Source: an uncultured Clostridia bacterium
GTDB lineage: Bacteria; Bacillota; Clostridia; Christensenellales; UBA1242
Assembly: GCA_947629505.1 (NCBI GenBank)
Contig: CANRDW010000002.1
Location: 150 to 64,149 of the forward strand
Reading direction: 5' to 3'
Length of the DNA stretch: 64,000 bases
A model generated the notes under the pieces. That model was given only the letters and a program-made list of their open reading frames with translations. It was not told where the DNA came from and did no database searches. Below, piece after piece: positions 3,606 through 23,328 of the stretch. The translations under genes and the position numbers were made by a program. Every line of letters begins with the position of its first letter. Within the stretch, counting starts at the first letter, position 1.

Positions 3606-3681
3606 GGGAGTTTAGCTCAGTTGGTAGAGTACCTGCCTTACAAGCAGAGGGTCATAGGTTCGAGCCCTATAACTCCCACCA
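3606..3681 (+). tRNA. tRNA-Val (anticodon UAC), CCA encoded
   Basis: Hand-folded cloverleaf. Acceptor GGGAGTT/AACTCCC, D stem GCTC/GAGT, anticodon loop CTTACAA, T arm ATAGG-TTCGAGC-CCTAT, 3' ACCA. Confidence 0.9.
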
Positions 3682-3682
3682 A
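3636..3682. repeat. attL core (3' part of the intact tRNA-Val)
   Basis: CCTTACAAGCAGAGGGTCATAGGTTCGAGCCCTATAACTCCCACCAA is identical to 23282-23328. Confidence 0.9.
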
Positions 3683-3749
3683 TAGTATTTTGAGAACACA
3701 ACATACACAACATGTTGTGTTCTTTTTTATTAAAATTTTAATTTGTGAC

Positions 3750-4907
3750 TCATTTTGTGCTGGAATTATCGTCAACTTTATCGTCAAAATCAAGGTATAA
3801 ATCGCCGTAAAGTTCGCGCAAAGCGGCCTTTGGTATGTTTTCCTTTATGTTCGTGTAAATGTCATTTGTGATCACAATTGAGGCATGTCCTAAGTAAAGT
3901 TGCCTGAATTTGTCCTTTGCTCCAAGAAAGTATAAGTTCGCCGAACAAGTGTGGCGCAGTTCATGAAGAGTTTTATCCACATTAATCTCGTTAAAAATAT
4001 CTTTTGTCTTTTTGGTGGCGGTGGTGGAATGCATTTTAAAACTGTCTTGCTTCATATTCGCTTTTAAAAATTCAATAAATCCTTTTGTCACAGGAATATG
4101 CCTATCAGCGTTTTGTGTTTTTGTTCCCCGGATATGTATTGTTTGTTTTTTCTCATTCAGATCTCTTGATAAAGAAAATCTTAAGGTTTCTTCTCTTCGA
4201 CTTCCGGCAATCAAGGAAAACACAAAAAATGCATACAATTTTGATTTTTTTGCTTCGGCCAAGAATGCTTTCTGTTCTTCAAGGGTCATAGGTGATCGCG
4301 ATTGTTTAAACTTCTGCTTTGGTTTCTCAAGGCCAACAGTCAAATCTTTTTTAATTTTCCCTGTCACAAACGCTTTTAAAAGAATTTTCTTTACTTTTTG
4401 AAAGACTTTGCCACGCGTTGTCTCTTTTTTAATGCCATTTATAAATTTCTGCCACTGCTCTATTGTGCTTTTCTCCAACTCTACACGAGCAAAGTGAGGT
4501 TTGATGTAATTATCAACCATTACTTTCCACTCATCTTTTGTGCCTTTCTTTAAGTCACTGTTTTCAATGTAAGTGTTGTAATAATACTCAAAATATGCAA
4601 TGACGGTCAATTTCCCGGACATTTTTATTCTTTTAACTTCATTCTTCTTTCTTGGAACAATCTTTGGGATTTTTTCGACAAGTTCTCTGTAAGTGTTCGC
4701 AATGGCATAATAAAGAAGTCCATTTTGCAATCGCGAATACTCCCAGCGACTGTCTTTTCGTTTATAGCAATATTTTTTCAATGTTTCTACTCCTTTATTT
4801 TCAATTTTTGGAGTAGAGTCTTTTTGACGTTTTTGAAAGTTTATCACTTTTGGCTGCAGGTCAAACGGGCCTTTGCTATCTTCTCGGGCCCATTCATAAA
4901 CTTTCAA
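3750..4907 (-). CDS. int: Tyrosine recombinase / phage integrase
   Basis: C-terminal catalytic motifs LHELRHT (HxxR) and LGHASIVITNDIYTN (H...Y). Adjacent to tRNA/attL. The annotated start is TTG at 4907, and a strong RBS+ATG lies at 4980 in another frame (see findings). Confidence 0.85.
   Translation of the reverse strand: MKVYEWAREDSKGPFDLQPKVINFQKRQKDSTPKIENKGVETLKKYCYKRKDSRWEYSRLQNGLLYYAIANTYRELVEKIPKIVPRKKNEVKRIKMSGKLTVIAYFEYYYNTYIENSDLKKGTKDEWKVMVDNYIKPHFARVELEKSTIEQWQKFINGIKKETTRGKVFQKVKKILLKAFVTGKIKKDLTVGLEKPKQKFKQSRSPMTLEEQKAFLAEAKKSKLYAFFVFSLIAGSRREETLRFSLSRDLNEKKQTIHIRGTKTQNADRHIPVTKGFIEFLKANMKQDSFKMHSTTATKKTKDIFNEINVDKTLHELRHTCSANLYFLGAKDKFRQLYLGHASIVITNDIYTNIKENIPKAALRELYGDLYLDFDDKVDDNSSTK
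3766..3787. promoter_or_regulatory. Putative integrase arm-type sites (2 x TTATCGTCAA, 12-nt period), left end
   Basis: TTATCGTCAA at 3766-3775 and 3778-3787. The same doublet, with the same spacing and orientation, is at 23209-23230. Confidence 0.5.
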
Positions 4908-5064
4908 CTTTTCTAAGATTTCACTGATTTGTTTGGCGTGAACCTCAATCTGTTCGATTTGTTTTTATATATTTTTCCATATTTATCCTCCTTTATGACA
5001 TAAAATATTTATTTTTTCGAACTTTTTGCATATAATTATATTGTCAAAAATTTTTTTAAAATTA

Positions 5065-5094
5065 TTGACAAATGCTAGTTAACTATGGTAAAAT
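5065..5094 (+). promoter_or_regulatory. Strong sigma-A-type promoter (extended -10)
   Basis: TTGACA at 5065-5070, 18-nt spacer ending in TGg, TAAAAT at 5089-5094. Confidence 0.55.
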
Positions 5095-5100
5095 TAGCAA

Positions 5101-5218
5101 TGTAAAGGGAATTTTTGCATTTCTAGTTGCGAAAATGCAACGATTCTCCAATTAGCTCATCTATCCTATTTTTGGTAGAAGGAGTTCTAAGAACGGTTAC
5201 CCTGTGGTAGCCGTTTTT
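5101..5218 (+). ncRNA. Candidate ~115-nt small RNA between the integrase and the DUF3800 operon
   Basis: Sits between the promoter above and an intrinsic terminator (stem AACGGTTA/TAGCCGTT 5192-5215, then a T-run). No ORF with an RBS. Contains the hairpin GTTGC-GAAAAT-GCAAC. Confidence 0.35.
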
Positions 5219-5714
5219 ATGTTTTTAAAGACTCTTCATATCTTTTTTGATAAACTTTAACATTTTGTTTGTTTACGATAAAGCAAGTTATAAATCTATA
5301 TCTTCTTGTCAAGCATTCCAAAACAATCATAATGTTTTTGCTTTTACACCAGACATATGTTTTTAATTTGTTTTTTTCTTTTCTATCAAAAGTAATGTAA
5401 TTTTCACAATCAAAACAATCTTGTAGCAAAACGGCTATGTAATGAACTGCTGCACATCTTTTCAAATTTGGATATGTTTTCTCATGAGTCCTATAGTCTG
5501 TATTTGAAATAATATGCCAAAATCGTTCTAACCTTCCATTTTCTTCTCTTAAATTTGAAACTTCTACCGGTTTGCTTTTAAAATAGACCGTATTTTTTAT
5601 AAATTTCTCTTCAAATAAGTCGCTTAAGTAATCAAAATAATTATCTACATTCCCATTAAAAGAATTCAAATCTCGTATTTCTTGTTCATGAATGCAAGAG
5701 GTCTCAGATTCCAT
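5217..5714 (-). CDS. Hypothetical protein, last gene of the XRE-DUF3800 operon
   Basis: RBS GGAGG 6 nt before the ATG at 5714 (MESETSC...). Overlaps the DUF3800 stop by 11 nt. No family recognised. Confidence 0.7.
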   Translation of the reverse strand: MESETSCIHEQEIRDLNSFNGNVDNYFDYLSDLFEEKFIKNTVYFKSKPVEVSNLREENGRLERFWHIISNTDYRTHEKTYPNLKRCAAVHYIAVLLQDCFDCENYITFDRKEKNKLKTYVWCKSKNIMIVLECLTRRYRFITCFIVNKQNVKVYQKRYEESLKT

Positions 5715-6420
5715 ATCTTTCCTCCGCACTTTCTAAAAACAATAAATTAAATTTTTCTTCTCTTAACAATGTTGTTTTGGTTAAATCATATCCGGACATT
5801 TTCTTTATAATTTCAATCAACTTTGTTTTTGCCTCAACTGCCGACAAATTTCTTAAACTGTATGAAATTGCTCCTAAAAGCAAATCAGTAATTTGAAGAA
5901 GTTGTATCTCGTGCGATTTAACTTGCTGCACTTTTTCAATGAAAGTTTTATTATATTCCCAATTCACAAGCTTATCTAAAACTTCTTTAAGATGTTCTAC
6001 TCTTTGTTGTGAATTTGTGTCCTTCATATCCAAATAAATATTATATTTTGAATTTGGCGATATAATTGCTTTTAACATTTCATAGTATGCAACATAATAG
6101 AACGACTTAAAATCGTGTTGCTTATATTTCTTAAAATTCAGTTTTGTTTTATCAACAATGATGGCGCGAAAGTGTAAATCCTCGTCATCAAAAAAAGTTA
6201 AGATCAAAGCCTTAGCCACTTCATAGTTAGATTTTGATATTTTTGTCCACTTTATTTCCTGCACTTTGGATCGCTTCCAAGTTTCTTTTATTCTTTTAAT
6301 TCTGTCGTTGATTTCTTTTATTTTGCTTTTTTTACAATACACACAACCAATCAACATGTATTGACAATTATCATTTTGTAAGTGACATGATTCGTCACAG
6401 TAAACATTGTATTCTTCCAT
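5704..6420 (-). CDS. DUF3800 domain protein
   Basis: RBS AAGGGGGGG then ATG at 6420. The N-terminal YCDES motif and overall pattern (IKWTKIS, RAIIVDK, QITDLLLGAI) are typical of DUF3800. The track ORF extension to 6603 overlaps XRE and is rejected. Confidence 0.75.
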   Translation of the reverse strand: MEEYNVYCDESCHLQNDNCQYMLIGCVYCKKSKIKEINDRIKRIKETWKRSKVQEIKWTKISKSNYEVAKALILTFFDDEDLHFRAIIVDKTKLNFKKYKQHDFKSFYYVAYYEMLKAIISPNSKYNIYLDMKDTNSQQRVEHLKEVLDKLVNWEYNKTFIEKVQQVKSHEIQLLQITDLLLGAISYSLRNLSAVEAKTKLIEIIKKMSGYDLTKTTLLREEKFNLLFLESAEERYGI

Positions 6421-6433
6421 ATTTATCCCCCCC

Positions 6434-6787
6434 TTATAAATACTTTTTTCGAATGATGTCACGTTCTTGTTGTGTTTCTTTAAGGCCGGCAATGTAGGCT
6501 TCAGCCTTGCCGCACAAATCTTCATCCAGATCTCTGATTGATTCAATGATACTTTGTTGCGCTGCATTGAAACTGTCAATGTGGATGATGCCTTTCGTTT
6601 CATGGCCTAAAAGATAATCGATTGAAACACCAAAATAATCCGCGAGTAATATTAGAGTATTTGAATCTGGCTGCCTTTTCCCTAACTCATAATTTTGATA
6701 TGTTTGCTTTTGTAATTTCAAATCCTGTGCCACTTCAGCCTGTGTTTTTTTTAGATTCTTGCGCAAAAATTGTAAGTTCTTCATCAT
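6434..6787 (-). CDS. XRE/CI-like helix-turn-helix repressor
   Basis: RBS AAGGAGG. HTH LKKTQAEVAQDLKLQKQTYQNYELGKRQP and LADYFGVSIDYLLG. Faces a divergent promoter/operator region. Confidence 0.85.
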   Translation of the reverse strand: MMKNLQFLRKNLKKTQAEVAQDLKLQKQTYQNYELGKRQPDSNTLILLADYFGVSIDYLLGHETKGIIHIDSFNAAQQSIIESIRDLDEDLCGKAEAYIAGLKETQQERDIIRKKYL

Positions 6788-6952: not shown

Positions 6953-6980
6953 ACAAAAAAATTGCCCCGGAGGGCAATTT
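6953..6980 (-). terminator. Intrinsic terminator of the 6991-7221 gene
   Basis: Stem AATTGCCC/GGGCAATT with a 4-nt loop, followed by a T-run on the minus strand. Near-identical to 7386-7413. Confidence 0.7.
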
Positions 6981-6990
6981 GATTGCAGAA

Positions 6991-7413: not shown

Positions 7414-7423
7414 TGATTGACGC

Positions 7424-8904: not shown

Positions 8905-9510
8905 ATGAAAGAAGAAAGAATTAACTTCTGGGCAAATCTGCCATATCCTGTGCGCGCATCAACAAACATTTCAAGCGATGAGAAACTGTTGTATGCTGAA
9001 GTTGTTGCACGATTAACTCCGGCCGGGTGCTGCAAAACATCAAATGAAACATTTGCACGGTTTTTTAACACTGACATAAGGACTATCTCTCGCAGAGTGA
9101 AAAATCTAGTAACATGGGGATATATGAGGATAACGCGAGATTATAAACGTCACATTCGAAAACTTTGGCCACTAGAAATTCAAATCCCGGATGTTGCAGA
9201 AGAGCCTGAGAAGTGGTCTGAAAAACAAAAGATGTTTGCAAAGGCATTTCCTGAAAGGCAAATTGACATGGCAGACATTCCGGACAGTGTGGACATGGAA
9301 CTTCTGATTCAGAAAATAAAAGAATCCAAATTCCTGTCAAAAGCAAAAAACATGAGTTTGCGATCATGCGTGTTGAAATATAAAGCCATTGTGGCTGACG
9401 GATATCATCAATTCAGTGAAGAGAAGAAAAAAAAGTCCGGCACAGAAAGAAGTTACACTGAAGAAGAGGCAAACGCTTTATTTCAAAGCGCAGATGAAGT
9501 TGAAATTTAA
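8905..9510 (+). CDS. Putative DNA-binding / replication-organiser-like protein (winged HTH N-terminus)
   Basis: RBS AGAGGTG. ETFARFFNTDIRTISRRVKNLVTWGYMRI looks like a wHTH. The functional call is weak. Confidence 0.45.
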   Translation: MKEERINFWANLPYPVRASTNISSDEKLLYAEVVARLTPAGCCKTSNETFARFFNTDIRTISRRVKNLVTWGYMRITRDYKRHIRKLWPLEIQIPDVAEEPEKWSEKQKMFAKAFPERQIDMADIPDSVDMELLIQKIKESKFLSKAKNMSLRSCVLKYKAIVADGYHQFSEEKKKKSGTERSYTEEEANALFQSADEVEI

Positions 9511-9524: not shown

Positions 9525-10721
9525 GTGCAAGAAACACACAAACTAAGTGGATGGTGGAAGTTTTTAATTGCAGTAGTGATCATTATTGGCTTGCCTTTAA
9601 ATGTTTGGCTTTGTTATTATCAAATTTTCCTAAAAGAGTCCACAATCGTAATTGACAGTTCCTTTGTTGACACCGCTGGGTATCGTGATGAGGACATCTA
9701 TTTCATGGAAGTGAATTACTATTCAAACGAAAAGAAAAACGGTGTTGAGTGCATGGAGTTTAAATTTAATTATTATGTGGATACTTCAATACCTGAGAAA
9801 AAAGAAGATGGGACTTATGATAATAAATACATGTTTTCAACAGGGGTGCAATTTCAAGACTTAAATGATTATTATGATCATTACAAAACAGGGAGCTTCT
9901 TCGGTTCTACACAAATTCATATTATCCCTAAAAATATGACTTTTTATGCCAAACCAGACGGACTTGATCAAGGATATCAAGTTTCTGATATAGATCTTGG
10001 CAACAGTTGGATTTTTGATATAGGTGGAAAACTTTGTTTAATTGAACCGATTGGCCCCGTTTATTTTACTAATTTTTTATGGGTTAAAGAGTATATTGAT
10101 TATGACATTCATTTTATGATTACGAAAACCATTATGTCTATTCAATCAATGAAAAATGGAACGACAATCACTGCGTTTAATTTCAGCGATTTTTTAAAAA
10201 TAACAAAAGTATACAATGAAGAAACCGGCAAATTTGAAGAAGAACTTGTAGACGACAATATCATAAAATACTTCACCTTTATGAATGTTTTAATTAACAA
10301 GACAGATAATGGCATGATTGAGGCTAAAAATTCAATATTCAATTCATATGATGGCGATCCTGAATGGTCTTTTAATAATGTTGGAGATAAAGTAACATAT
10401 TGGCGCGATGACACTATTTATGACATAGATTCCGATGACTTCAAATTTGTTTCCGTGGGTGATGGTTATGAGATTGAATTAAAAGATTCTTGTGCAGATT
10501 TTCTTTCTGAATTCTCAGATGTGCTCTTAAATGTTGAGATTAATCTTGACGATTTTAGTTCGATCCTCAATATTATTGGATTTACAACACAACCTTTCAA
10601 GGATTTAAATGTTAATTCAATTAAGATCACTTCATCTACACAAAAAGATTTTATTGTATATGGTTTTAACGATCTGGACATTCAAACTGAAAATGTAAAT
10701 ATTGTCCGTGGAGGTGCGTAA
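9525..10721 (+). CDS. N-terminally membrane-anchored protein (398 aa)
   Basis: RBS AAGGAG then GTG. TM WWKFLIAVVIIIGLPLNVWLCYY, then an acidic, beta-rich ectodomain. Confidence 0.75.
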   Translation: MQETHKLSGWWKFLIAVVIIIGLPLNVWLCYYQIFLKESTIVIDSSFVDTAGYRDEDIYFMEVNYYSNEKKNGVECMEFKFNYYVDTSIPEKKEDGTYDNKYMFSTGVQFQDLNDYYDHYKTGSFFGSTQIHIIPKNMTFYAKPDGLDQGYQVSDIDLGNSWIFDIGGKLCLIEPIGPVYFTNFLWVKEYIDYDIHFMITKTIMSIQSMKNGTTITAFNFSDFLKITKVYNEETGKFEEELVDDNIIKYFTFMNVLINKTDNGMIEAKNSIFNSYDGDPEWSFNNVGDKVTYWRDDTIYDIDSDDFKFVSVGDGYEIELKDSCADFLSEFSDVLLNVEINLDDFSSILNIIGFTTQPFKDLNVNSIKITSSTQKDFIVYGFNDLDIQTENVNIVRGGA

Positions 10722-11326
10722 TGGGGTTGCTTGAATGGATTTTAATTATTGTTGGCATTGTAGCGTTTGTTTTAATTTTGCTTGCCTCGATTAAATATCA
10801 AAATTATAAAGTGCTTGGCATAATCGTGTTGCTTGCTTGGTGTGGACTTTCTGTGTATAGTGGATTTACTTTGCTTAAATACGAAAACTCGCATTCAAAC
10901 CTCTTTGGCACACCGGAAGTGCATGATCCTTATGAAAATTTTAATTACTACGAATATGATCTTTCTGGGATATCCTGGTATTTCACTGAAGAAGATCCAA
11001 CACTTAGATATGAGACAGAGTATAAAACCTCAATCAAGTTTGATGGCAATAAAAACAAATATCATTTACTTGTCAACAATGCACCTTGCACAAAAACCGA
11101 ATCAACAAATGGTAGACTTAAAGGTTTTTTGAAAAAACAGTTTACCCAGATGGATGGAGAAACCAAGATTATTAACTTTGAAATCACATTCGAATTTTAT
11201 GTGTCCAGCATCAAAATTAAAATTGAAACAGATGCAACTTCAGAAGATATTGGATATGTAAACGAATATGTAGAAATTAACGGATTCAACTTGAGAATTA
11301 TCAATGCCGTTTATGGCTTGGGTTAA
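10721..11326 (+). CDS. Two-TM membrane protein (201 aa)
   Basis: RBS GGAGG with a TAATG overlap. Two N-terminal hydrophobic helices. Confidence 0.75.
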   Translation: MGLLEWILIIVGIVAFVLILLASIKYQNYKVLGIIVLLAWCGLSVYSGFTLLKYENSHSNLFGTPEVHDPYENFNYYEYDLSGISWYFTEEDPTLRYETEYKTSIKFDGNKNKYHLLVNNAPCTKTESTNGRLKGFLKKQFTQMDGETKIINFEITFEFYVSSIKIKIETDATSEDIGYVNEYVEINGFNLRIINAVYGLG

Positions 11327-11338
11327 AAGGAGAAATTT

Positions 11339-13312
11339 ATGGATTGGAAAAAAGCACTTAAAATCACAGGTATCATATTGCTGATCTTGGCTTTTGTGTT
11401 TATTGCAATCTGGGTTGCGTTTAATTGGAAAACAATTTTTTCAGGATCAAAGATTTACACTTCACAGCAAAGAGAAGAATATGGAGATCAAAGATACAAT
11501 GCAGCACTTGAACAAGCAGAGAAGTGGCGCGTGCAAGTGCAAGAATTACAAAATAAAGTTGTTGTATATGAAGAAAATCAAAACGATCTTAAAGTTCAAG
11601 TAAGCACGTTGATAAATGAAAAAGAAACACTGCAAAACCAAAAAACTACTCTAGAAGCAGAAGTGAGACAAAAAGATGAACAAATTGCTGAACTTGAGCA
11701 ATCACATACAAATGATCAACAAGAAATAAAAACCTTAAAAACCGAAAAAAACAGTTTAGAGGCTGAAATTCAACAAAAAAATGCTCAAATTTCAGAAAAA
11801 GAGCAAAAAATCACACAATTTCAAACACAAATTATAGAATTAAAGAACAGTGTGACAAGGCTCATCTCTGAACTTGAAGCATATAGAGAAAAAGACATCG
11901 GGCTTAACAAAATTGAATTTATAAATAAAGATATTGTTGAAAGAGTTGTTTATTTCAAGAAAGGAGAAACCATTCCATATGTTCCAACTCTTGAGCAAAA
12001 AGTAGACGAATGGTTTTATGGTTGGACAAAGGAAAAAGGGAGCGAAAATGTCTTTAACCTTACAACAGAGTATACTCCATCTGGAGATGAGACTTTTTAT
12101 GCAGTCACCGGGCCAACAGTTCCGGTTGCTGTTCCAGACTCTTTTTCAAAAAATTTTAATTCATACTCTGAATATGGATGGTATGGAGAGAATTTAACAC
12201 TAAATGACATTTTAAATTTTGATGAAGATATTGATTTTGACGATCCAAATTTAACTTTAACATTAGGAACAAGTTCTCGTAAAACACCAAAAATTACTTT
12301 AAATACCAAGATAAAAGATTTTGCAGATAATGTCCAAACAACTTATAATGGCGGGCTTCTTGGCGAACATGCCGATGGAGTTTATGACTATGCTTGTTCG
12401 TTTAATATTAATCTTAAATATAAAGTTAAGACTATAATGAAAGAAACATTTACAGAGTCCTATCAACGAGATCCATGGTTTACAGACGAAGATGAAAATC
12501 ATTTTTTTGATTTGGGTTTTGACTTTAAATTTAGTAAAATTTTGGGCTTTGATTACTGTATTAGAGAGTCTATTGAAGATAAAGCTGTATGGAAAAGATT
12601 TACGGGTGATTTTACTTATGTCAAAGAGGATAGTTCTGGTGGATCGCAGAGTTCGTCTCCGGTTTACAAATGCACACTTGATAATGGAGAAACTTGGAAA
12701 TTCAAACTTTGGCTACCATTTGATGGAGGCATTTCATGTAAATTATATGAAGTGAGCAATATGACAGCAAGCCGAATCATAAATTACAGAAACATCGTTT
12801 TAGAATTGGATCTTATTACAAGGAACAATGTTTATACTACAGAATGTGCCTGTGCTAAACATACAGATGAAGCTTATGAACAATATTTAAATAATACATA
12901 TGCACATTGCTTTACAGATAATGCTGCTTTATGGGTTACAAAAAAGATTGAGGATAATAGCTTTGATTATATTTTAGCAGGTAACAATAATGGAGATCGT
13001 TGCTATAAAACAATTGAAATTTTGGCAAATAATGCAACAAATTTAAAACTTGACCTTTTTGCTTTAGAGAAAGATGGAAACTATTTTGGAATTATTTATA
13101 CCGTGCAAGGTGAAGATGGTCAGGATTACTCTGCGATGTTACTTGTTTATAGGGTAAAAGATGGTTATGGTGATAGTTTTGAAAGCAAAACTTTAATTGA
13201 AGAAAAACAGTGCAGCATAACTAGGATGGACAAACAAATTACAGTAAATTCTAGTGAGGGCAGCAAAACATATACATTAAATGAAGATAGACTTACGCTA
13301 GATGCTGCCTAA
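11339..13312 (+). CDS. Membrane-anchored coiled-coil protein with a List-Bact-type repeat (657 aa)
   Basis: RBS AAGGAG. N-terminal TM, a ~150-aa heptad-rich Q/E/K segment, then EWFYGWTKEKGSENVFNLTTEYTPSGDETFYAV (Flg_new-like) and a Cys-containing C-terminal domain. Confidence 0.8.
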   Translation: MDWKKALKITGIILLILAFVFIAIWVAFNWKTIFSGSKIYTSQQREEYGDQRYNAALEQAEKWRVQVQELQNKVVVYEENQNDLKVQVSTLINEKETLQNQKTTLEAEVRQKDEQIAELEQSHTNDQQEIKTLKTEKNSLEAEIQQKNAQISEKEQKITQFQTQIIELKNSVTRLISELEAYREKDIGLNKIEFINKDIVERVVYFKKGETIPYVPTLEQKVDEWFYGWTKEKGSENVFNLTTEYTPSGDETFYAVTGPTVPVAVPDSFSKNFNSYSEYGWYGENLTLNDILNFDEDIDFDDPNLTLTLGTSSRKTPKITLNTKIKDFADNVQTTYNGGLLGEHADGVYDYACSFNINLKYKVKTIMKETFTESYQRDPWFTDEDENHFFDLGFDFKFSKILGFDYCIRESIEDKAVWKRFTGDFTYVKEDSSGGSQSSSPVYKCTLDNGETWKFKLWLPFDGGISCKLYEVSNMTASRIINYRNIVLELDLITRNNVYTTECACAKHTDEAYEQYLNNTYAHCFTDNAALWVTKKIEDNSFDYILAGNNNGDRCYKTIEILANNATNLKLDLFALEKDGNYFGIIYTVQGEDGQDYSAMLLVYRVKDGYGDSFESKTLIEEKQCSITRMDKQITVNSSEGSKTYTLNEDRLTLDAA

Positions 13313-13333
13313 AAGCAAAAAGGAGAAGAAAAA

Positions 13334-14812
13334 ATGAAAAAAACAACAAGAATTGGCATGACGGCACTTGGAATCACTGCAGCGCTTGCTGGCGGAACTG
13401 TGGCTGGAGTTTATCTGGAAAAGGAAGTTCTGCAAAGAAATGGATTGGACATGCCCTCACAAAGTCAAGATGCTGAACAACAAAAGAAGTTAGAGCAAGA
13501 ATTACGTGAGAAAATCGAAAAAGAGATGAATGCGCAGTTCGAAAAAGAGAAGCAAGATCTCGAAAATCAACATCAAACAGATCTCGAAGCAGCAAAACAA
13601 GAGGGGAAAACTGAGGCGGAGGCTGATGTAAAAACTTTAAAAGATGTAATTTCAACCGTATTTAACAGTGATACAGCAGGGGAATTCACTCTTGAAAATG
13701 GTGATTTAATCAAATATGCGCCAAAAGAAGATAAAAGTGGCATATATGTTTTAAACACAAAAACACTTGAATATAAAACAGCAAATATAGATACTTCTTG
13801 GAGTTTTAACGTTTTGAAAGCAGATATATATAACAAAAGGCAAAACAATTTCACTACTTATGATGAAAACACCATTTATTTTCAAGTTTCTACTGAGGGG
13901 TTGTTTGCCATAAAGGACAATCTTGATATTGTAAAGATGATCGATCTGCACAATCAGGCTTTTAATGCCACTTCATTGCAAAAGTATGGTGACAAATATT
14001 TCCTGTTTGGCGGATCAAACGAAACAACATCTTTATTTGAAATTGATGGCTTAACTTGTAAAAAAATAACAACTCCAGAAGAGTTGTCTGGACACTTGTC
14101 TCAAATGTGGACAGATATGAAATATTTTTCTATTGATGCCGATGATCTAATCCTATATACAAATTCATCTCAAACTTCCTGTGGTGGAATATATAGGATT
14201 AAAGATGGAAACCTAGAAATCCTTTATGGAGATGCAGAATTAGATGCGCAAAATTCTCATGCAATTTACACACTAAATGTGCAAGAAAATAGCAAGGGTG
14301 ACAAAATTGTATTGGCAAATTATGAAAACAATTCAAAAAAGCATATATGGACATGCAATCTGTCACAAGGAAAAGATAGCATACAAGATCATGAACTTGC
14401 TGAATCTGTTAGTTCTGGAATAGCCTCTCTTGCATTCTTAGATGACGACTTCACAAATATAGTTGTTGGTGGGAATGGATGGGGTGATATTAAAGTTTAC
14501 AAATTTCAAGATCAAAACTATGTAATGCAAAGCGAAATATCTTTTAGTGGCTATTACAGATTTATCAAGCAGTTTGGTCAAGATATTGTTATTGGAACTC
14601 AAGCAGGGGAAAATTATTATCTCTATGTTGTTCGTGAAGATCAAGAACAAGTTTCGTCACAACAGCTGTTGAGTGGCCATAATATTGAGACTGCAGAATG
14701 GTATAACGGATATATGCCAGATGACAGTGATTTCATTGTTACTGATTCTCAAGGCTCTAAAGAATACTACAAGTATAATCAAGATTTACATACAGTTGAA
14801 AAAATAAATTAA
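13334..14812 (+). CDS. Membrane-anchored protein, paralogue A (492 aa)
   Basis: RBS AAGGAG. The N-terminal MKKTTRIGMTALGITAALAGGTVAGVYLEKEVL is shared with the 15981 gene. Short coiled coil, then a beta-rich domain. Confidence 0.8.
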   Translation: MKKTTRIGMTALGITAALAGGTVAGVYLEKEVLQRNGLDMPSQSQDAEQQKKLEQELREKIEKEMNAQFEKEKQDLENQHQTDLEAAKQEGKTEAEADVKTLKDVISTVFNSDTAGEFTLENGDLIKYAPKEDKSGIYVLNTKTLEYKTANIDTSWSFNVLKADIYNKRQNNFTTYDENTIYFQVSTEGLFAIKDNLDIVKMIDLHNQAFNATSLQKYGDKYFLFGGSNETTSLFEIDGLTCKKITTPEELSGHLSQMWTDMKYFSIDADDLILYTNSSQTSCGGIYRIKDGNLEILYGDAELDAQNSHAIYTLNVQENSKGDKIVLANYENNSKKHIWTCNLSQGKDSIQDHELAESVSSGIASLAFLDDDFTNIVVGGNGWGDIKVYKFQDQNYVMQSEISFSGYYRFIKQFGQDIVIGTQAGENYYLYVVREDQEQVSSQQLLSGHNIETAEWYNGYMPDDSDFIVTDSQGSKEYYKYNQDLHTVEKIN

Positions 14813-15063
14813 ACTCATGGCGCTTTAGTGCGCCAATATGGAAGTGTAGCACAATGAGAAGTGCAAAAGCCCGGCCAGCGAATATGTAGGTGCAAGGCCT
14901 ACCACTTTCACCAAAGCAGAGAGAAAACATTTAATCCTCCTATCCATAAATGTTCTGGGCTCTCTGCTTACCAAAGACAAGAAGTTTGAAATCCTAAGCC
15001 AATTTTTCTTCTTGTCTTACAACTTGCAAAAGCAAGAAATTTAATTTAAAAGGAGAAAAGTCT
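14813..15063 (+). other. 250-nt highly structured non-coding spacer (at least four strong hairpins)
   Basis: Stems TGGCGC/GCGCCA, GTAGG/CCTAC, AAGCAGAGAG/CTCTCTGCTT (with inner AACATTTA/TAAATGTT) and AAGACAAGAAG/CTTCTTGTCTT. No ORF. Confidence 0.5.
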
Positions 15064-15273
15064 ATGGCAAAAGAACATAAAAAGATGAGTTGGGTTGGCA
15101 TAATTTGCTGGATCTTAGTGTTTTTAATTGTCGGTGGTGGTGCAGGTTATGGGACTTACGCGACAGTTAAATACTTTGAGGATAAAAATGCAGAACAATC
15201 CAAGGTAACTGACGAGGAAGTTGGCTCACAAGATGTTAAACTCACAGAAGATGGCGTTGTTTTGTATGTGTAA
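15064..15273 (+). CDS. Small single-TM protein (69 aa)
   Basis: RBS AAGGAG. Basic N-terminus, TM WVGIICWILVFLIVGGGAGYG, acidic C-terminus. Confidence 0.7.
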   Translation: MAKEHKKMSWVGIICWILVFLIVGGGAGYGTYATVKYFEDKNAEQSKVTDEEVGSQDVKLTEDGVVLYV

Positions 15274-15291
15274 AAAGATTGGAGATAAAAA

Positions 15292-15807
15292 ATGATAAAG
15301 AAAAATCATAGAAAGCCAACTAAAAACAGAACTAAAGCAACAAGTAAAGTTAAATCAATTAAAAAACACGAAACAAATACTAAGAAGAGATCTAAAGGTC
15401 AAGACAAGAAAATTCGTATTGGACAAACACTTGAAACAAACGATATTTATCTTCCTCATAAAAAGAACAGAGTCCCAAAATCTAAAAAAAGGCCTATTCT
15501 TGTTGTTGATAAAAATGAGTTTAACGAACTCGTTGTTGTTCCTGGCAGTAAAAAGAAAACAAACAATACAGTTCCATATAATCGATATGGTTTAAAGAAT
15601 TATAGGATTAGTATTGAAATTGAAGATAACGAGGGGAATCCTATCAAAGAGAATGAAAAATTTAGAAAAACCAAAAACTGTTCTGTTCTTCCTGAAAGTG
15701 AAACCTTAAAAATTAAAGACAACGTTATTAATCACTCTCGTTTTACAAGTGAAAATAGAAAGAAATATAATCTTTTTATTAACAGACATAAAAAAAGTAG
15801 GGATTAA
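15292..15807 (+). CDS. Extremely basic protein (171 aa)
   Basis: RBS GGAG. The first ~70 residues are almost all K/R/T/N. The RPILVVDKNEFNELVVVPGS segment is faintly PemK/SH3-like, which is not a confident call. Confidence 0.7.
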   Translation: MIKKNHRKPTKNRTKATSKVKSIKKHETNTKKRSKGQDKKIRIGQTLETNDIYLPHKKNRVPKSKKRPILVVDKNEFNELVVVPGSKKKTNNTVPYNRYGLKNYRISIEIEDNEGNPIKENEKFRKTKNCSVLPESETLKIKDNVINHSRFTSENRKKYNLFINRHKKSRD

Positions 15808-15906
15808 TCCACCCTACTCAATGCCCAGACTTTCAGGGCAGGCGCTCCCTAGCCTAAATCCTTTGGATTTACCTATGAGCCTGTTAAACAAGTTTTTATA
15901 AACTTG
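15796..15906. repeat. ~110-nt structured repeat, copy A (inverted partner at 23332-23440)
   Basis: Near-identical to the reverse complement of 23332-23440. An internal hairpin differs by compensatory changes (TGCCC...GGGCA versus GCCAAG...CTTGGC). Confidence 0.8.
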
Positions 15907-15980
15907 ATACAGACATTATATTACATCTTATTTAAAAAGTCAATACTTTTTGGCAAAAAATTTAAAAAAAAGGAGAGAAA

Positions 15981-17375
15981 ATGAAAAAATCAACAAAAAT
16001 TGGTATGACAGCTCTTGGAATCACTGCAGCGCTTGCTGGTGGAACTGTGGCCGGGGTTTATCTAGAAAAGGAAGTTCTGCATCCTCAAGTGCAACAGCAA
16101 ACAAATCAATCAGAAAGTAATGAAGATATTCTTGTTGGATATATTATATCTTCAAATGACTCTGAGATGGGACAATATATTCCTGCTAATGCAAATAAAA
16201 CATATTCTTATTTAGGAACTGATGGAGAATTAATTGACGATCCACAAATTATTGCTCAAAAAGAATGTTCTTCACTTGGTGGAAAAGGAATTTATGTTTT
16301 TAATATTAAAACAAAAACTTGTAAAAAGTTTTTTAAAGACACTTCTGTAGATGAAATCAATTTCACGTCATTGGCGAGTATCCAATATTCACCTTATTCT
16401 TCGAGAATTGTTTGTGTTGGACAAGATGTTTATTACTTTGATCCGGGCACTTTCGATTTTATTAAAACAGACATTCAGGGCGATGTAAAAAAAGTATATA
16501 ATGCGCAATATGGCAACATTCTGTTGTTGGCAGACAAAATTGCTTGTTTAGATGTTGATTCCAGGAAAACAAGCACCATGGAGTCACCTCAACTTATCAA
16601 AGAATTAGTGGATGATCAATCACTTCATTATGATGAAGAATTAGAAACATTCTACTTTACTTCTTCTCGAGCATTTGATGAATACAACAAAGGCCTGGCT
16701 GTATATAAAATCAGTCAAGATAGAACTGAGGTAAAGACAATTTTTGAGGGGACTTCAAACGATAGATATGCACAAGTCCAATCTTGCAAAGACAAACTCA
16801 TATTCCATAAATATGAAAATTCTAGTTGGCAATCACCTTGTGTAAGCGCTATCGTTTGTGATTTGGCCAAATATACATATAAAGAGATCACCTATCCAGA
16901 ACAACTTGCAAGCCAATTTAATGATTCAACTTCCTTGTTTTTGGAAGATAAGTATATGATCATGGTTGCTAACACGACAGAAGATTCAAACACACTTAAA
17001 TTTTACGCCTTTGATCTAGATGCCGGCACATATACGACAAAAGAAATCACTGACGAAAGTTTAAGTATAAGAACGGGATCTGGATGCATTCAGTTTTTGG
17101 GCTTATCTACACGCAATGACTATACACTTATTTTCCTAAGCAATTACGACTATTCTAATAGACTGTATTGGGGATATCTTGCTCACATTCAAGATGGTGA
17201 ACTAGAATTAAGTATCGTAAATGAAGATTTTAACAAAACAAAACATCAAGGCGTTGTTTACTTCGATTGGTTTAATAGCAATACCATCGAAACTAGAGAA
17301 GAGGATGGCACAACAAACAAATATCTCTTTGATGAAAAAACCTTAACCTTTACAAAAACAGTGGAGGAAGTGTAG
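15981..17375 (+). CDS. Membrane-anchored protein, paralogue B (464 aa)
   Basis: RBS AAGGAG. The first ~100 nt are ~90% identical to the 13334 gene, then the sequences diverge. Confidence 0.8.
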   Translation: MKKSTKIGMTALGITAALAGGTVAGVYLEKEVLHPQVQQQTNQSESNEDILVGYIISSNDSEMGQYIPANANKTYSYLGTDGELIDDPQIIAQKECSSLGGKGIYVFNIKTKTCKKFFKDTSVDEINFTSLASIQYSPYSSRIVCVGQDVYYFDPGTFDFIKTDIQGDVKKVYNAQYGNILLLADKIACLDVDSRKTSTMESPQLIKELVDDQSLHYDEELETFYFTSSRAFDEYNKGLAVYKISQDRTEVKTIFEGTSNDRYAQVQSCKDKLIFHKYENSSWQSPCVSAIVCDLAKYTYKEITYPEQLASQFNDSTSLFLEDKYMIMVANTTEDSNTLKFYAFDLDAGTYTTKEITDESLSIRTGSGCIQFLGLSTRNDYTLIFLSNYDYSNRLYWGYLAHIQDGELELSIVNEDFNKTKHQGVVYFDWFNSNTIETREEDGTTNKYLFDEKTLTFTKTVEEV

Positions 17376-17605: not shown

Positions 17606-18511
17606 TTGAAAGAATATTCTAAAATTGAAGATATTTTCGCAGATGGAATATTTACGCCTTATGAAACATTGGTTGTTTGGGCGAAGCGCGGCAAGGGCAA
17701 GTCCGCTTTTGCCGCCTTTCTCCAAACTGAATTTATGAAACCTGCTATGGCAAGCATTTCCTTAGACAAAGCCAAAGAAAAGTGTGAGAAATTAAAAAGA
17801 GCCGGGATTTATATTGAGCCTCCAAGAGATCATTTAGTTTTCAATGACACTTTTTGTGAAGATTACAGATATCCGGGAAGAATTGCCTATGAAATTAAAG
17901 CAACAGACATTGGCATTCCTAATAAAATTCATAGAGTAAAGCAACTCATCCCATTTTCACAAATCTTCTTAGAAGAGATTCAAGATTTATTTGACAGTCA
18001 CCTTGGTGCGCCACCAACTTTTGTCACTAAATCATTTGAACTTGGCCGACATAATGGACTTTTTATTTGTATGACTTTACAAAGGCCAATTCGTTTACAT
18101 AAAGATATCCGTGATCTTGCCACGTTTGTTGAAATTGTTCAGATGTCTGTTGTAACAAACAAGTATGGAAAGATTTTAAAGACTGTTTGGTTGTGTAATA
18201 TCATTTATGACAACGCAAACTTAGAGGCTTATCTTCAATCCAAAGACGATGCGTATGTTGATTTAAAAGTTAAGTTTGCCTTTAAAGGCAATATATTCAA
18301 CTGTTATGATCCTGAATTCTTTGCTCTTGCTTTCTATTCTGGGAATAACACTGAGGAATTAAAACTTACTAAATCACAACGTATTGATTTTACACCTGAG
18401 TCTATACAATCTTTTGAACAAAATCACTGTATTGATATTCCTGAAACTTATCGAGGGAAAATGCTAAAATCTACAAAATCGAAGAAAAAGGATGGTGATA
18501 ATGATGACTGA
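17606..18511 (+). CDS. Zot / inovirus pI-like P-loop NTPase (soluble, 301 aa)
   Basis: Walker A AKRGKGKS, Walker B IFLEEIQD, and ELGRHNGLFICMTLQRPIRLHKDIRDL matching the Zot-family RHxGxDIxLxTQ block. TTG start. No C-terminal TM seen. Confidence 0.55.
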   Translation: MKEYSKIEDIFADGIFTPYETLVVWAKRGKGKSAFAAFLQTEFMKPAMASISLDKAKEKCEKLKRAGIYIEPPRDHLVFNDTFCEDYRYPGRIAYEIKATDIGIPNKIHRVKQLIPFSQIFLEEIQDLFDSHLGAPPTFVTKSFELGRHNGLFICMTLQRPIRLHKDIRDLATFVEIVQMSVVTNKYGKILKTVWLCNIIYDNANLEAYLQSKDDAYVDLKVKFAFKGNIFNCYDPEFFALAFYSGNNTEELKLTKSQRIDFTPESIQSFEQNHCIDIPETYRGKMLKSTKSKKKDGDNDD

Positions 18512-19101: not shown

Positions 19102-19461
19102 ATGACGAAAAATGATTTTATTACTGAAAATTTAAGATTTTGCCGGATTTTAACTCAGCAAAAAATTTCTGCGGAAGATGATCGGGCTATAAAAAATTTT
19201 ATAGCACAAAATTCAGAGCATATTTTTACAGATCTTGTTGCGCATCAAATTAAAATTTCCAAGATCGATTATGTAAATGACACTATGCGTTTATGTTACC
19301 TTTTGCCACAGTGTGAATTTGGATCTCACGAGGATCTACAAATTAAGAAAGAAATTGCATCGAATTTATCTAAAATTTCTCAAATTGAAAAACAAGAGAG
19401 TGAAGTTCGGCGCAACAAAAAAGATAGAGATCTGATTTTAAAGATCACTTCATGTATGTAG
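19102..19461 (+). CDS. Hypothetical protein (119 aa)
   Basis: RBS GGAGAA then ATG. Confidence 0.65.
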   Translation: MTKNDFITENLRFCRILTQQKISAEDDRAIKNFIAQNSEHIFTDLVAHQIKISKIDYVNDTMRLCYLLPQCEFGSHEDLQIKKEIASNLSKISQIEKQESEVRRNKKDRDLILKITSCM

Positions 19462-19469
19462 GAGGGCCT

Positions 19470-20294
19470 ATGAAAACGATAAATCTAGAGAATTACAAAT
19501 TAAATGAAGATGAACACTTAGATGAAAATCATCTGCCTGTATGCAACAAATGTGGCATGAAAAGATATATTATCAATCCTTTCAATAATCAAATACAAAT
19601 TTGCTTGTGTAAATGTCAAAAAGCAAATTTTGATGAACAGCAAGCAAGATTCGAAAGCCAGCAGTTGTCCATAAAGATTGAAAAAACAAGATTTTTGAGT
19701 CTTTTAGGGAAGAGATATCAGAATGTAAACTTTGACAACAGTGAATTAGACTCACAAAACATTGAGATCTACAGCAAGGTTAAAGATTATGCAGAACATT
19801 ATGAGGAAATGTTAAATAAGGGCTTAGGATTTTACATCTATGGAAAAAACGGCGTAGGAAAAACACATCTCTTGGCTTGTTTATGCAATTATTTGATAGA
19901 ACACGCTCAGGCCTGCTGTTTTACGAATTTTTTAAACATATCTGAGAATTTGAAAGAAGCGTATATATCAAAGCAAGAAGAAAGTGGAGTGATTGAGAAG
20001 TATTCCCGTGTCAACTTCCTCATTATAGATGATTTAGGAAAGGAAAGTTTTAAAAAGATAAAAAGTGACACAGAGAACTTGTGGCTTGAAGAGAAAATCT
20101 TTGAAATTTTAAACAATCGCTACAACAACATGCTTCCTACAATATTTTCTAGCAATTACTCTCTGATCGAACTAAGCACTGTTTTTGGATTTGATAAAGG
20201 AATTGTTGACAGAATTTATGAATTTTCGAGCAGTATTTTTGAAATGAAAGGCAAAAATCGAAGATATTCCGTTTACAAACTAGAAAATCAATAA
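19470..20294 (+). CDS. DnaC/IstB-like AAA+ helicase-loader protein with an N-terminal Cys cluster
   Basis: RBS AGGAGGG then ATG at 19470. Walker A GKNGVGKTHL, Walker B LIIDDLGKE. N-terminal CNKCG...CLCKC. Confidence 0.8.
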   Translation: MKTINLENYKLNEDEHLDENHLPVCNKCGMKRYIINPFNNQIQICLCKCQKANFDEQQARFESQQLSIKIEKTRFLSLLGKRYQNVNFDNSELDSQNIEIYSKVKDYAEHYEEMLNKGLGFYIYGKNGVGKTHLLACLCNYLIEHAQACCFTNFLNISENLKEAYISKQEESGVIEKYSRVNFLIIDDLGKESFKKIKSDTENLWLEEKIFEILNNRYNNMLPTIFSSNYSLIELSTVFGFDKGIVDRIYEFSSSIFEMKGKNRRYSVYKLENQ

Positions 20295-20325
20295 TATAAA
20301 GTTTAACGCTACTAAGGAGGGCCTT

Positions 20326-20520
20326 ATGGAAAAGACACTTAAAGAAAAAATAGAAAAAATAATGGAATGGCATGATTGGGCACCATGGCAATTTGCAAAA
20401 TGGCTTGGTGTTTCTAAATCTCAAGTCACACGGTGGCGTGCTGGTCAACAGATTCCACGTGGTGAAACGTATATGAAAATTTGCAAGGAATACGAAGATA
20501 AATTTTCAGATGGAGGCTAA
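20326..20520 (+). CDS. Small HTH protein (Cro/XRE-like, 64 aa)
   Basis: RBS AAGGAGGG. QFAKWLGVSKSQVTRWRAGQQIP. Confidence 0.65.
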   Translation: MEKTLKEKIEKIMEWHDWAPWQFAKWLGVSKSQVTRWRAGQQIPRGETYMKICKEYEDKFSDGG

Positions 20521-20522
20521 AT

Positions 20523-20777
20523 ATGGAAAAGGGGTTGAGTGTATATTCACAAGTTGATCGAGAGCAATTCTTTTCAATTTCAACAATAGATCCAGAGCAG
20601 ATGAAAAAGCATGGATTAAATATGTCTATTACTCAGTTGAAAGAATTAGCGCGAAATCATCCGTGGGCGAAAGAAATCCGCACAGGGAGTCCCACAAATG
20701 AGAAAAGACAGTGTTGGACAAAGATTTACAGATATGACGACTTCAAAAACTTTAATTATAAAAATGTAGGAGGTTAA
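20523..20777 (+). CDS. Hypothetical protein (84 aa), possibly excisionase-like
   Basis: RBS GGAGG. MSITQLKELARNH...IYRYDDFKNF resembles MerR-type Xis only weakly. Confidence 0.5.
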   Translation: MEKGLSVYSQVDREQFFSISTIDPEQMKKHGLNMSITQLKELARNHPWAKEIRTGSPTNEKRQCWTKIYRYDDFKNFNYKNVGG

Positions 20778-20778
20778 T

Positions 20779-21003
20779 ATGGATATTTTGGCTCTTATAC
20801 TTTGGTTAATGATAATTTTCTCAGGGCTGCTTGTAATTGCAAATATAGTCATTTTGTTTAGAAGTTATTTTAAAGACAGAGATGTCTGTGACTTTTCCCA
20901 ACAAATAGATTATATGCGGAGACAGATTGCAAGTTTGCAGGCTGAAGTTGACGCTTTAAAATTAAAAATTCGAAAGAAAAAAGGAGATGATTCTGATGCT
21001 TAA
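20779..21003 (+). CDS. Small single-TM protein with a basic coiled C-terminus (74 aa)
   Basis: RBS AGGAGG. TM ILALILWLMIIFSGLLVIANIVILF. Confidence 0.65.
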   Translation: MDILALILWLMIIFSGLLVIANIVILFRSYFKDRDVCDFSQQIDYMRRQIASLQAEVDALKLKIRKKKGDDSDA

Positions 21004-22017: not shown

Positions 22018-22253
22018 CTACTCAAAAAAAGAATCAAAAAAATATACCAATTAAATTAATATAATATACTTTTATTTATTATATAAAGAGAGATATATGT
22101 CACAATTTTGCCAATTTATCTCCGCGCAAGCGCAAAAATAGGTGCTTTTTTATTCGCAAGATGGCAGTTTCCGTTTGCCCGTCAGCGAAAATGCTGGCAA
22201 AAGGCTAAAAAATAATAAACTGCATCGAAAAAAAATCTTTTAGACAAAAAGTA

Positions 22254-22282
22254 TTGACTTTTTTGTAAAAAATTGGCATAAT
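22254..22282 (+). promoter_or_regulatory. Sigma-A-type promoter of the TA operon
   Basis: TTGACT, 17-nt spacer, CATAAT. Confidence 0.55.
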
Positions 22283-22300
22283 TTTAATAAGGAGGCTTAA

Positions 22301-22900
22301 ATGACTAAGGAATATGAAGCAAAAGACATTGCACAATGGTTTATAAATCGCGCTGCAATGGATGCAGAAATGTTTTATGGGGAATACATGACAAATCTCA
22401 AGTTGCAAAAACTTCTTTACTTTGCACAAGGCTTTTCTTATGCAATAAACAACAAACCACTTTTCAAGGAAGAACTTCAGGCATGGCAACATGGTCCTGT
22501 TGTTCCATCTATATACATGACTTATAAAGTATGCAAAGCAGATCCAATTTCAGATGTAAATCCTGTTGAAATAGATGATGAAACTTCTGCACTGTTGGAA
22601 TTAGTGTATAAACATTTTGGAATCTATTCTGCAACACAATTAAGAAACATCTCTCACAGTCAAATGCCTTACATGAAAAATTATAAAGAGAATGTTCCAA
22701 ACATTAAAATCCCAAAAGCAGATATTAAGCAACAATTTCAACAAGAGCACGAGTCTTTATCAAAGGAATTTATCGAAAATAAGGAAGAATTACTGAATTA
22801 TGCTGAAACTTGTTACATCAACAGCGTTCCAAACTTAAAAGAGAAGATTCTTCAAGACAATAACGATCTGGTAGAGGTGGATTGGCGCAATGAGTTATAA
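22301..22900 (+). CDS. Panacea (DUF4065/SocA-like) domain antitoxin
   Basis: NLKLQKLLYFAQGFSYAINNKPLFKEELQAWQHGPVVPSIY is the Panacea-domain signature. Overlaps the toxin gene by 11 nt. Confidence 0.8.
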   Translation: MTKEYEAKDIAQWFINRAAMDAEMFYGEYMTNLKLQKLLYFAQGFSYAINNKPLFKEELQAWQHGPVVPSIYMTYKVCKADPISDVNPVEIDDETSALLELVYKHFGIYSATQLRNISHSQMPYMKNYKENVPNIKIPKADIKQQFQQEHESLSKEFIENKEELLNYAETCYINSVPNLKEKILQDNNDLVEVDWRNEL

Positions 22901-23150
22901 AATACAAATGACAAGAGACGCTTTGAAAGACTATGAAAAAGTTAAAAAATCAGTTTTTCATGGTGCTGTAAAAGAATTACTCAACATTTTAGCAGAAGAT
23001 CCACTTAAATTTCCACCACCGTTTGAACAACTTAGAGGGGATTTAAAAGGTTATTATTCCAGAAGAATAAATAAACAACATCGTCTTGTTTATACAATTC
23101 AAGGTGAAGTTGTAATTATAAAATCAATGTGGACACATTATGAAACATAA
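22890..23150 (+). CDS. YoeB/Txe-family (RelE-fold) toxin
   Basis: LKGYYSRRINKQHRLVYTIQGEVVIIKSMWTHYE matches YoeB (FWSRRITEEHRLVY...CRYHY). Confidence 0.85.
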   Translation: MSYKIQMTRDALKDYEKVKKSVFHGAVKELLNILAEDPLKFPPPFEQLRGDLKGYYSRRINKQHRLVYTIQGEVVIIKSMWTHYET

Positions 23151-23208
23151 AAATGAGCCAACAATGGCTCATTTTTTTAATTATTGTGTTACACTTCCTG
23201 GTAAAAAA

Positions 23209-23230
23209 TTATCGTCAAAATTATCGTCAA
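23209..23230. promoter_or_regulatory. Putative integrase arm-type sites, right end
   Basis: TTATCGTCAA at 23209-23218 and 23221-23230, ~50 nt inside attR. Mirrors 3766-3787. Confidence 0.5.
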
Positions 23231-23281
23231 AAAACTCTACTCATTCGTAATTTAGCAACGAGTGGCGATTGGCCACAAGTT

Positions 23282-23328
23282 CCTTACAAGCAGAGGGTCA
23301 TAGGTTCGAGCCCTATAACTCCCACCAA
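23282..23328. repeat. attR core (displaced 3' fragment of tRNA-Val)
   Basis: Identical 47-mer to 3636-3682 and lacks the tRNA 5' half. Confidence 0.9.

Follow-up and report, generated by a model that had tools for sequence, protein, structure and literature searches.

Attachment cores, arm-type sites and integrase

The window analysed here is a stretch of 64,000 nucleotides (nt) from an uncultured Clostridia bacterium, and its subject is an element of 19.7 kilobases (kb) that had been proposed, on reading the letters, to lie in a tRNA-Val gene between two exact attachment (att) repeats. A tRNA-Val with the anticodon TAC was called at 3606-3681 by ARAGORN and Rfam (Rfam tRNA, 69.8 bits), and the 47-mer CCTTACAAG...CCCACCAA, in full CCTTACAAGCAGAGGGTCATAGGTTCGAGCCCTATAACTCCCACCAA, is present in exact copies at 3636-3682 and 23282-23328. 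Positions 3636-23328 are very probably a site-specifically integrated mobile element, with an attP composed of a P arm, a core and a P' arm. The features of the recombination module are, from left to right (aa, amino acids; bp, base pairs):

3565..3594, plus strand: promoter-like site of the host tRNA-Val, outside the element (TTGACA-18-TAAACT, extended -10)
3606..3681, plus strand: intact tRNA-Val(TAC), its 3' 46 nt within the attL core
3636..3682, plus strand: attL core, 47-bp exact repeat, anticodon loop to CCA plus 1 nt
3692..3724, plus strand: terminator hairpin from the element, directly 3' of the restored tRNA and kept in the attP of relatives
3750..4907, minus strand: tyrosine integrase (Int) of 385 aa with three lambda Int-like domains, ending 68 bp from the tRNA
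3766..3787, plus strand: P' arm-type doublet, TTATCGTCAA twice at a 12-bp period, within the int 3' end
23209..23230, plus strand: P arm-type doublet, TTATCGTCAA twice at a 12-bp period, in non-coding DNA
23282..23328, plus strand: attR core, orphan 47-bp copy of the tRNA-Val 3' part, without the 5' half

The exact 47-bp repeats, one intact in tRNA-Val and one orphan, were confirmed by matching, by shuffling and by counting. Within the window no third copy of the 47-mer was found at up to three mismatches, and 0 of 100 shuffles gave any; in the whole assembly of 991,195 bp and 43 contigs it occurs exactly twice, as does each of the 15-mers sampled along it (10 of 10). The doubt raised along with the original prediction, that the 47-mer might be a common tRNA fragment dispersed in this genome, is ruled out by the two occurrences in the 991-kb assembly. 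Identity ends at both repeat edges; the block begins one base ahead of the 7-nt anticodon loop and ends one base beyond the CCA. The functional core common to relatives is 45 nt, from the anticodon loop to the CCA, and the extra base at either side of it within the 47-mer is probably a chance match. An intact tRNA and a far-end direct repeat of the tRNA 3' part are both present, as in tRNA-inserted elements.

The placement of the boundaries at the att cores was borne out by the closest relative, found in ENA assemblies, a unit of 17,265 bp whose Int is 86% identical and whose Zot-like ATPase (described below) is 78% identical to those of the element. This relative has the same TTATCGTCAA doublets, but its core is the 3' part of tRNA-Ala(TGC), and the host flanks of the two are unrelated. 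Since the relative sits in another tRNA and is collinear with window positions 3637-23309, the homology ends at the cores; the reasoning is that of a comparison with an empty site. An element that reached past attR, to the outer copy of a sequence of about 110 nt, was considered and rejected; the homology ends at 23309, and the relative's own right flank differs, so the outer copy is not a part of the element.

The doublets TTATCGTCAA-NN-TTATCGTCAA were found just inside both ends (3766-3787 and 23209-23230), both on the plus strand and hence in the same orientation, as had been predicted; the accompanying description of them as mirrored does not hold, since the sites are direct repeats. The 10-mer TTATCGTCAA has 11 occurrences in the genome, four of which make up these two doublets, and the left doublet falls inside the last 12 codons of int, encoding ...FDDKVDDN... 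Of the genus's 30 best int loci, 28 have at the int 3' end a 9-mer repeated exactly at a spacing of 12 bp, and 20 of these 28 have an intact tRNA nearby, while the background of such doublets in the genome is 0.063 per kb. tRNA-Val(TAC) is the site of 9 of the 30 loci. Six elements could be read at both ends, spanning 12.3-19.7 kb, each flanked by a direct repeat of 46-95 bp taken from the 3' part of its tRNA, namely Val(TAC) twice, Lys(TTT), Leu(TAG), Leu(TAA) and Arg(ACG). In five of the six, both arms carry a motif of the element's own at a distance of about 40-120 bp from the core and in one orientation, with one motif per element and mostly in tandem at the 12-bp period (TTATCGTCAA, AGTTTAGTCAAA, GTTTGGTCA, TTGACGAAGATT and TTGACTAGAC); the sixth, at tRNA-Lys (G066), gave no clear doublet motif. 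This recurrence at both ends of relatives, with a sequence that varies with the integrase, supports the reading of the doublets as P and P' arm sites, and in the attP junctions observed in relatives the doublets lie on either side of the core in contiguous sequence. Their constant position, their integrase-linked sequence and their recurrence in non-coding DNA at the far end speak for putative sites of protein binding and against a constraint imposed by coding for the Int tail.

It could be supposed that the 47-bp repeat arose as a local partial duplication of the tRNA, with no mobile element involved and with the doublets there by coincidence. However, what lies between the repeats is homologous over its whole length to elements in other tRNAs, which have tRNA-derived repeats of their own (46-95 bp), and the doublets occupy a constant place in 28 of 30 int loci, compared with the background of 0.063 per kb. 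A local duplication is refuted by these tRNA-derived repeats of the family, by the recurrence of the doublets and by the collinearity with the closest relative, and we leave it practically no chance.

The gene adjoining the intact tRNA had been named a tyrosine integrase, and the 385-aa open reading frame (ORF) that ends 68 bp from the tRNA agrees with this (Pfam Phage_integrase, E = 3.5e-12; PHROG 1, E = 2e-30). All of the catalytic residues are present, R (GSRRE), K (GTKT), HxxR (HELRH), H (LGHAS) and Y (DIYTN), at positions that are invariant across an alignment of 42 integrase sequences. The N-terminal block K45-P85 is also strongly conserved in the 42 homologues, with K45, C47, R50, D52, R54 and W55 invariant. 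In the AlphaFold model of the integrase (overall pLDDT 82.6) this block forms strands at 47-49, 55-61 and 64-70 and a helix at 73-82, with pLDDT of 76-90; beyond it come a flexible linker and the core-binding and catalytic domains. The top PDB fold matches of the model were full-length lambda Int chains (1Z1B, 1Z1G and 5J0N), with 338-352 aligned columns, whereas lambda Int 75-356 constructs gave only 273-288; Tn1549 Int and the Xer recombinases came after lambda Int. No Pfam arm-binding family matched the Int N-terminus. By its modelled fold the integrase has the architecture that uses arm-type sites, and binding of arm DNA is predicted.

Like lambda Int, mycobacteriophage L5 Int and the Int of Tn916/Tn1549, the integrase is built of three domains, the N-terminal one with three strands and a helix, and it shares with lambda-type integrases the R-K-HxxR-H-Y residues and the repeated sites of about 10 bp in both arms, tens of bp from the core. 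Its sequence identity to the lambda-type integrases is however just 16-18%. The element differs from lambda-type systems in its same-orientation doublets, in their strict 12-bp period and in the overlap of one pair with the int stop region, and no Xis or IHF sites were identified.

Junctions in relatives and the exchange of the tRNA core

In two ENA contigs of the closest relative (NODE_784 and NODE_424) the right end, with its Panacea antitoxin, YoeB toxin and P doublet, is joined through a single core to the left end, with its terminator, P' doublet and int. A like junction was found in contig NODE_9074 of a second relative (Int 79% identical), where the tRNA-Val core is identical to that of this element at 46 of 47 positions. 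An attP assembled in silico from 23181-23328 plus 3683-3800 aligns over its full length with the junctions of both relatives, the differences being concentrated in the core of the Ala element. Comparison with relatives supports the claim of an element inserted in tRNA-Val with a complete recombination module, and the junctions suggest that this copy may likewise be excisable.

The tRNA-Val(TAC) and tRNA-Ala(TGC) genes share CTTRCAAGCAGRGGGTCA around the anticodon loop, and the Val/Ala difference in the core (loci L049:8890-9110 and L058:2431 and 19696, compared with the att sites of the window) looks like a recent change of target. In the genome that carries this element (G000), a tRNA-Ala(TGC) on contig C33 is directly followed by a flank matching the right side of the closest relative's attR; by its sequence, this tRNA is the unoccupied attB of that relative.

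In the circular form of the element, the P arm of attP would hold two TTATCGTCAA sites, at about 52-73 bp from the core. The core itself would duplicate the host tRNA-Val(TAC) between the anticodon loop and the CCA, and in the P' arm a further two TTATCGTCAA sites, at 84-105 bp, would overlap the int 3' end. Int would act as a lambda-type heterobivalent recombinase, with the N-terminal domain on the arm doublets and the central and catalytic domains on the core, and strand exchange with tRNA-Val on the chromosome would most likely fall in or near the 7-nt anticodon loop. We place the predicted crossover point at the anticodon loop because it is there that attP and attB become identical in each of the three comparisons. 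The anticodon stem-loop could give attB an inverted symmetry of the kind that core-type sites have about an overlap of 6-8 bp, but attP retains only the 3' arm of the stem. Integration would leave an intact tRNA at attL, with its 3' part and the terminator (3692-3724) supplied by the element, and an orphan 3' tRNA fragment at attR.

The anticodon loop is reportedly one sublocation class among integration sites in tRNA genes, with an identity block that runs to the tRNA 3' end. Like the anticodon-loop integrators, the element has an identity block from the anticodon loop to the CCA, a restored tRNA and an int gene adjoining the intact tRNA; it differs in that the core has been exchanged between Val(TAC) and Ala(TGC) inside one close lineage with identical arm sites. 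The mechanism of integration is textbook, and the att call is no surprise. Less ordinary is that recombination modules so nearly identical have swapped Val and Ala cores, that the 12-bp doublet rule holds across the family, and that the cargo is tail-less.

Several observations weigh against an element that still moves through a working attP. The junction in NODE_424 stands in a tandem array, in which a P' remnant of 150 bp and host DNA come after the second unit, and the junctions of the relatives, as assembled, prove site-specific joining at the core and not necessarily a free circle. An unoccupied tRNA-Val site with these flanks was found neither in the contig searches nor in relatives. A degenerate pattern for the strain's own attL, attR, attB and attP gave 0 matches in metagenome and viral contigs, and its one match in genome contigs is another occupied tRNA-Val, in a metagenome-assembled genome labelled 'uncultured Lachnospiraceae bacterium'. 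In the nearest strain (87.5% DNA identity) a different gene lies upstream of ttcA, and synteny is thus broken where the integration locus ends on the right. No excisionase family was recognised among the element's ORFs with Pfam and PHROGs, and the middle of the element is a mosaic relative to the closest relative, so that its morphogenesis module may or may not be complete.

The same findings bear on the reading of the element as a fixed, defective remnant, with att sites and int intact but with excision or particle production lost. Such a remnant would suit the lack of a recognised excisionase, the 0 matches to this copy's own junctions in metagenome and viral contigs, and a middle that is without three genes of the closest relative (448, 138 and 107 aa) and has extra insertions. 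Decay would, however, be expected to appear first as mismatches in the att sites, arm sites and core genes, and here the two att cores agree at 47 of 47 positions, none of the four arm sites has a mismatch, and every core gene of the family is open at a length equal to that in the relative (int 385 aa, XRE 117, Rep-like 201, ATPase 301, and the 84-aa gene). We regard a defective remnant as unlikely, and an integrated mobile element with its attP parts in place remains the preferred reading.

An empty site in related genomes had been proposed as a check on the element, and this did not succeed: no conspecific unoccupied tRNA-Val was found among the contigs, with the flank proteins or in 40 relatives. 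Exact-protein look-ups with both flanking host genes returned no records, and when the joined flanks were sought in the 40 relatives synteny was lost at species distance and no empty site was readable. The nearest TtcA (93% identical) is on a contig of 2.3 kb, where its upstream neighbour matches G000 contig C23; the contig carries no tRNAs and was rejected as an empty site. Numerous genomes of the genus do have a tRNA-Val match yet are without a homologous integrase at E <= 1e-20.

Two further observations concern these contigs. In the nearest strain (L092) the gene before ttcA corresponds to one at the end of contig C23 of the genome studied here (C23:16412-17004; compare G000 C2:23774), and no tRNA-Pro or tRNA-Val lies between ttcA and its upstream gene. 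In NODE_424 (L058:19743-19890) the relative's attR core is followed by a P' remnant of about 150 bp with its doublet and without int, and then by the host flank; this remnant appears to be what is left of a tandem copy since lost.

Gene content and nature of the element

Inside the recombination module the element carries the following genes and features (HTH, helix-turn-helix):

5217..6603, minus strand: DUF3800 protein and a 170-aa protein, copy-specific cargo, both absent from the closest relative
6434..6787, minus strand: XRE/CI-type HTH regulator (117 aa), kept across the family
8905..9510, plus strand: HTH_36 protein, replication-initiator-like (201 aa), kept across the family
9525..17375, plus strand: block of membrane-anchored or secreted proteins (398, 201, 657, 492, 69, 171 and 464 aa), mosaic and variable in relatives
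15791..15898, minus strand: internal copy of the structured sequence of about 110 nt, inverted relative to the copy just beyond attR
17606..18511, plus strand: Zot/pI-like P-loop ATPase (301 aa), hallmark gene of the family
19452..20294, plus strand: DnaC/IstB-like helicase loader, copy-specific insertion
20326..20777, plus strand: small HTH protein (64 aa) and conserved 84-aa protein, core genes of the family
22301..23150, plus strand: Panacea-domain antitoxin and YoeB/RelE-type toxin at the right end, also in the closest relative

Compared with the closest relative, the segments that this copy has in addition are at about 4995-6440 (the DUF3800 cargo) and 19466-20334 (the DnaC-like loader), and the membrane-protein block is a mosaic between the two. 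Across all 28 ORFs, Pfam and PHROGs recognised int, the XRE repressor, the DUF3800 protein, the HTH_36 initiator-like protein, the DnaC-like loader, small HTH proteins and the Panacea/YoeB pair. The two scans detected no terminase, portal, HK97-type capsid or tail gene, the sole tailed-phage-related result being a weak terminase-family match on the ATPase itself (E = 1.2e-4), and Pfam gave no relaxase, coupling protein or type IV secretion family in any ORF. Neither a rolling-circle Rep nor a pII family was detected in the two scans; the HTH_36 initiator-like protein and the DnaC-like loader are present instead. Two small proteins with one hydrophobic segment, of 69 aa (15064-15273) and 74 aa (20779-21003), are candidates for the major coat protein and have no family match.

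The model of the ATPase is confident (pLDDT 87.5), and Foldseek matched it to the Zot N-domain 2R2A (E = 3e-7), to the STIV B204 packaging ATPase and to Inoviridae Zot models (E = 5e-9). Its Pfam Zot match is below threshold (E = 0.0012), and it is without a C-terminal membrane segment. In the phage collection its sole match by tblastn was the 'Zonula occludens toxin' gene of bajarodino virus 12 (E = 9e-11). No relatives of the ATPase were found in IMG/VR, a search of its profile against PDB sequences gave nothing significant, and the DNA of the element gave only a tRNA-like match of 36 bp in the phage collection.

Integrated inoviruses with tRNA att repeats are well documented, and 582 such prophages have been described in isolate genomes (Roux et al. 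2019, PMC6813254). The element resembles them in its pI/Zot-like ATPase, its small proteins with a single transmembrane segment, the lack of tail genes and the pairing of an integrase with tRNA direct repeats; unlike them, it has no rolling-circle Rep that could be found, and its 301-aa ATPase is without the C-terminal membrane segment. The familiar inoviruses are smaller than this element of 19.7 kb. Bajarodino virus 12 (PQ006185.1, from rodent faeces), with 9,828 bp, has half its size; its translated DNA matches the ATPase at 24% identity over 76% of the query, the ATPase being the protein compared, and DNA similarity is nil. Plasmavirus L2 of Acholeplasma (L13696) is similar in being small, tail-less, temperate and site-specific, in its Firmicutes-related host and in its envelope or membrane proteins. 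No sequence link to L2 was seen for this element: the ATPase profile gave no significant match to the L2 ORFs (best E = 0.014 in a set of 13 sequences; hhalign probability 1%), and int showed only marginal similarity to L2 ORF5 (E = 1.4e-4 in a set of 13 proteins).

The presence of a Zot/pI-like ATPase and a membrane block, and the lack of genes for tail, capsid or conjugation, are suggestive of a tail-less temperate virus, inovirus-like or pleomorphic, a reading that we hold to have roughly an even chance. The main alternative is a plasmid-like integrative or mobilisable element, not a virus, in which the Zot-like ATPase would serve DNA transfer or partition. The replication genes are indeed of the plasmid or double-stranded DNA (dsDNA) type (HTH_36 initiator-like, DnaC-like loader), with no rolling-circle Rep, a toxin-antitoxin pair is carried, no capsid protein was recognised in the ORFs with Pfam and PHROGs, and one integrase-less member of the family (G079:C7) was found as an episome-like contig of two perfect tandem units free of host DNA. 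Relaxase, coupling protein and type IV secretion genes were, however, not found with Pfam, and by fold the ATPase is closest to the Zot N-domain 2R2A, to inovirus Zot proteins and to packaging ATPases of viruses. Its only match to a phage record is a 'Zonula occludens toxin' gene in a virus record of 9.8 kb, and small single-transmembrane and large secreted proteins adjoin it, as in filamentous phages. A plasmid-like element is a real candidate, at somewhat less than even odds. More tentatively, since we would sooner doubt than affirm it, the family may be an undescribed, genus-wide lineage of tail-less temperate viruses that combines a Zot/pI-type ATPase with dsDNA-style replication and has kept its arm sites while swapping Val and Ala cores. 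If true, this would be a case of natural retargeting of an att site through a shared anticodon stem-loop, at 86% Int identity. With firm boundaries one can ask whether this tail-less cargo with a Zot-type ATPase is a virus.

Other members of the family and the 110-nt sequence

The host genus is uncultured, Spo0A-bearing and Clostridia-like, with genomes of 0.7-1.4 Mb; in genomes so small, mobile DNA of 12-20 kb takes up an appreciable part. Homologues of the Zot-like ATPase were found in 48 of the 121 genus genomes searched and those of the integrase in 43 of the 121. The present analysis provides base-level boundaries and a predicted attP for a member of a family that occurs in about 40% of the genus genomes searched. 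Across the family, both the sequence of the arm sites and the tRNA target change along with the integrase, a natural series that offers material for studies of target change in tyrosine integrases.

Some members depart from the common arrangement. Contig G079:C7 (33,279 bp) consists of two perfect tandem units of 16,589 bp without host flanks, only 46 nt at each end being different; the unit has the XRE gene, the Rep-like gene, membrane proteins and the ATPase and is without an integrase homologue, and it may be an episome or a concatemer. In G128:C8 int adjoins the orphan tRNA-Leu fragment and not the intact tRNA, so that the core is inverted relative to int when compared with the other members. 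The member at tRNA-Gly(CCC) in G052:C6 has one repeat of 26 bp at a distance of 15,410 bp and repeats of 44 and 27 bp at 16,706 bp, which suggests a nested or tandem arrangement.

Internal duplications were also observed in the element of the window. The 492- and 464-aa secreted or anchored proteins share a ribosome-binding site and signal-peptide region (13317-13434 and 15964-16081, 89% identical) and diverge completely after it. In the control region a segment of 113 bp is duplicated (7241-7353 and 7800-7912, 87% identical), and near-identical terminator hairpins at 6955-6985 and 7389-7419 flank two small leftward genes.

The sequence of about 110 nt lies at 23337-23445 on the plus strand, 8 nt beyond attR, where it folds well (z = -4.5) and is followed by a terminator. 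The internal copy (15791-15898, minus strand) is 92% identical and inverted, with paired changes in one hairpin, and an internal copy occupies the corresponding position in the closest relative. No Rfam family was found for the sequence, and among 154 genus genomes just 4 have it. It is precisely at the 110-nt copy that metagenome contigs break off or pass into host DNA; NODE_784 exits the element at this repeat and enters host-like DNA. As an RNA-like sequence shared in antisense between the element and the host flank, it could link the regulation of host and element, and recombination between the two inverted copies could flip the segment from 15.9 to 23.3 kb.

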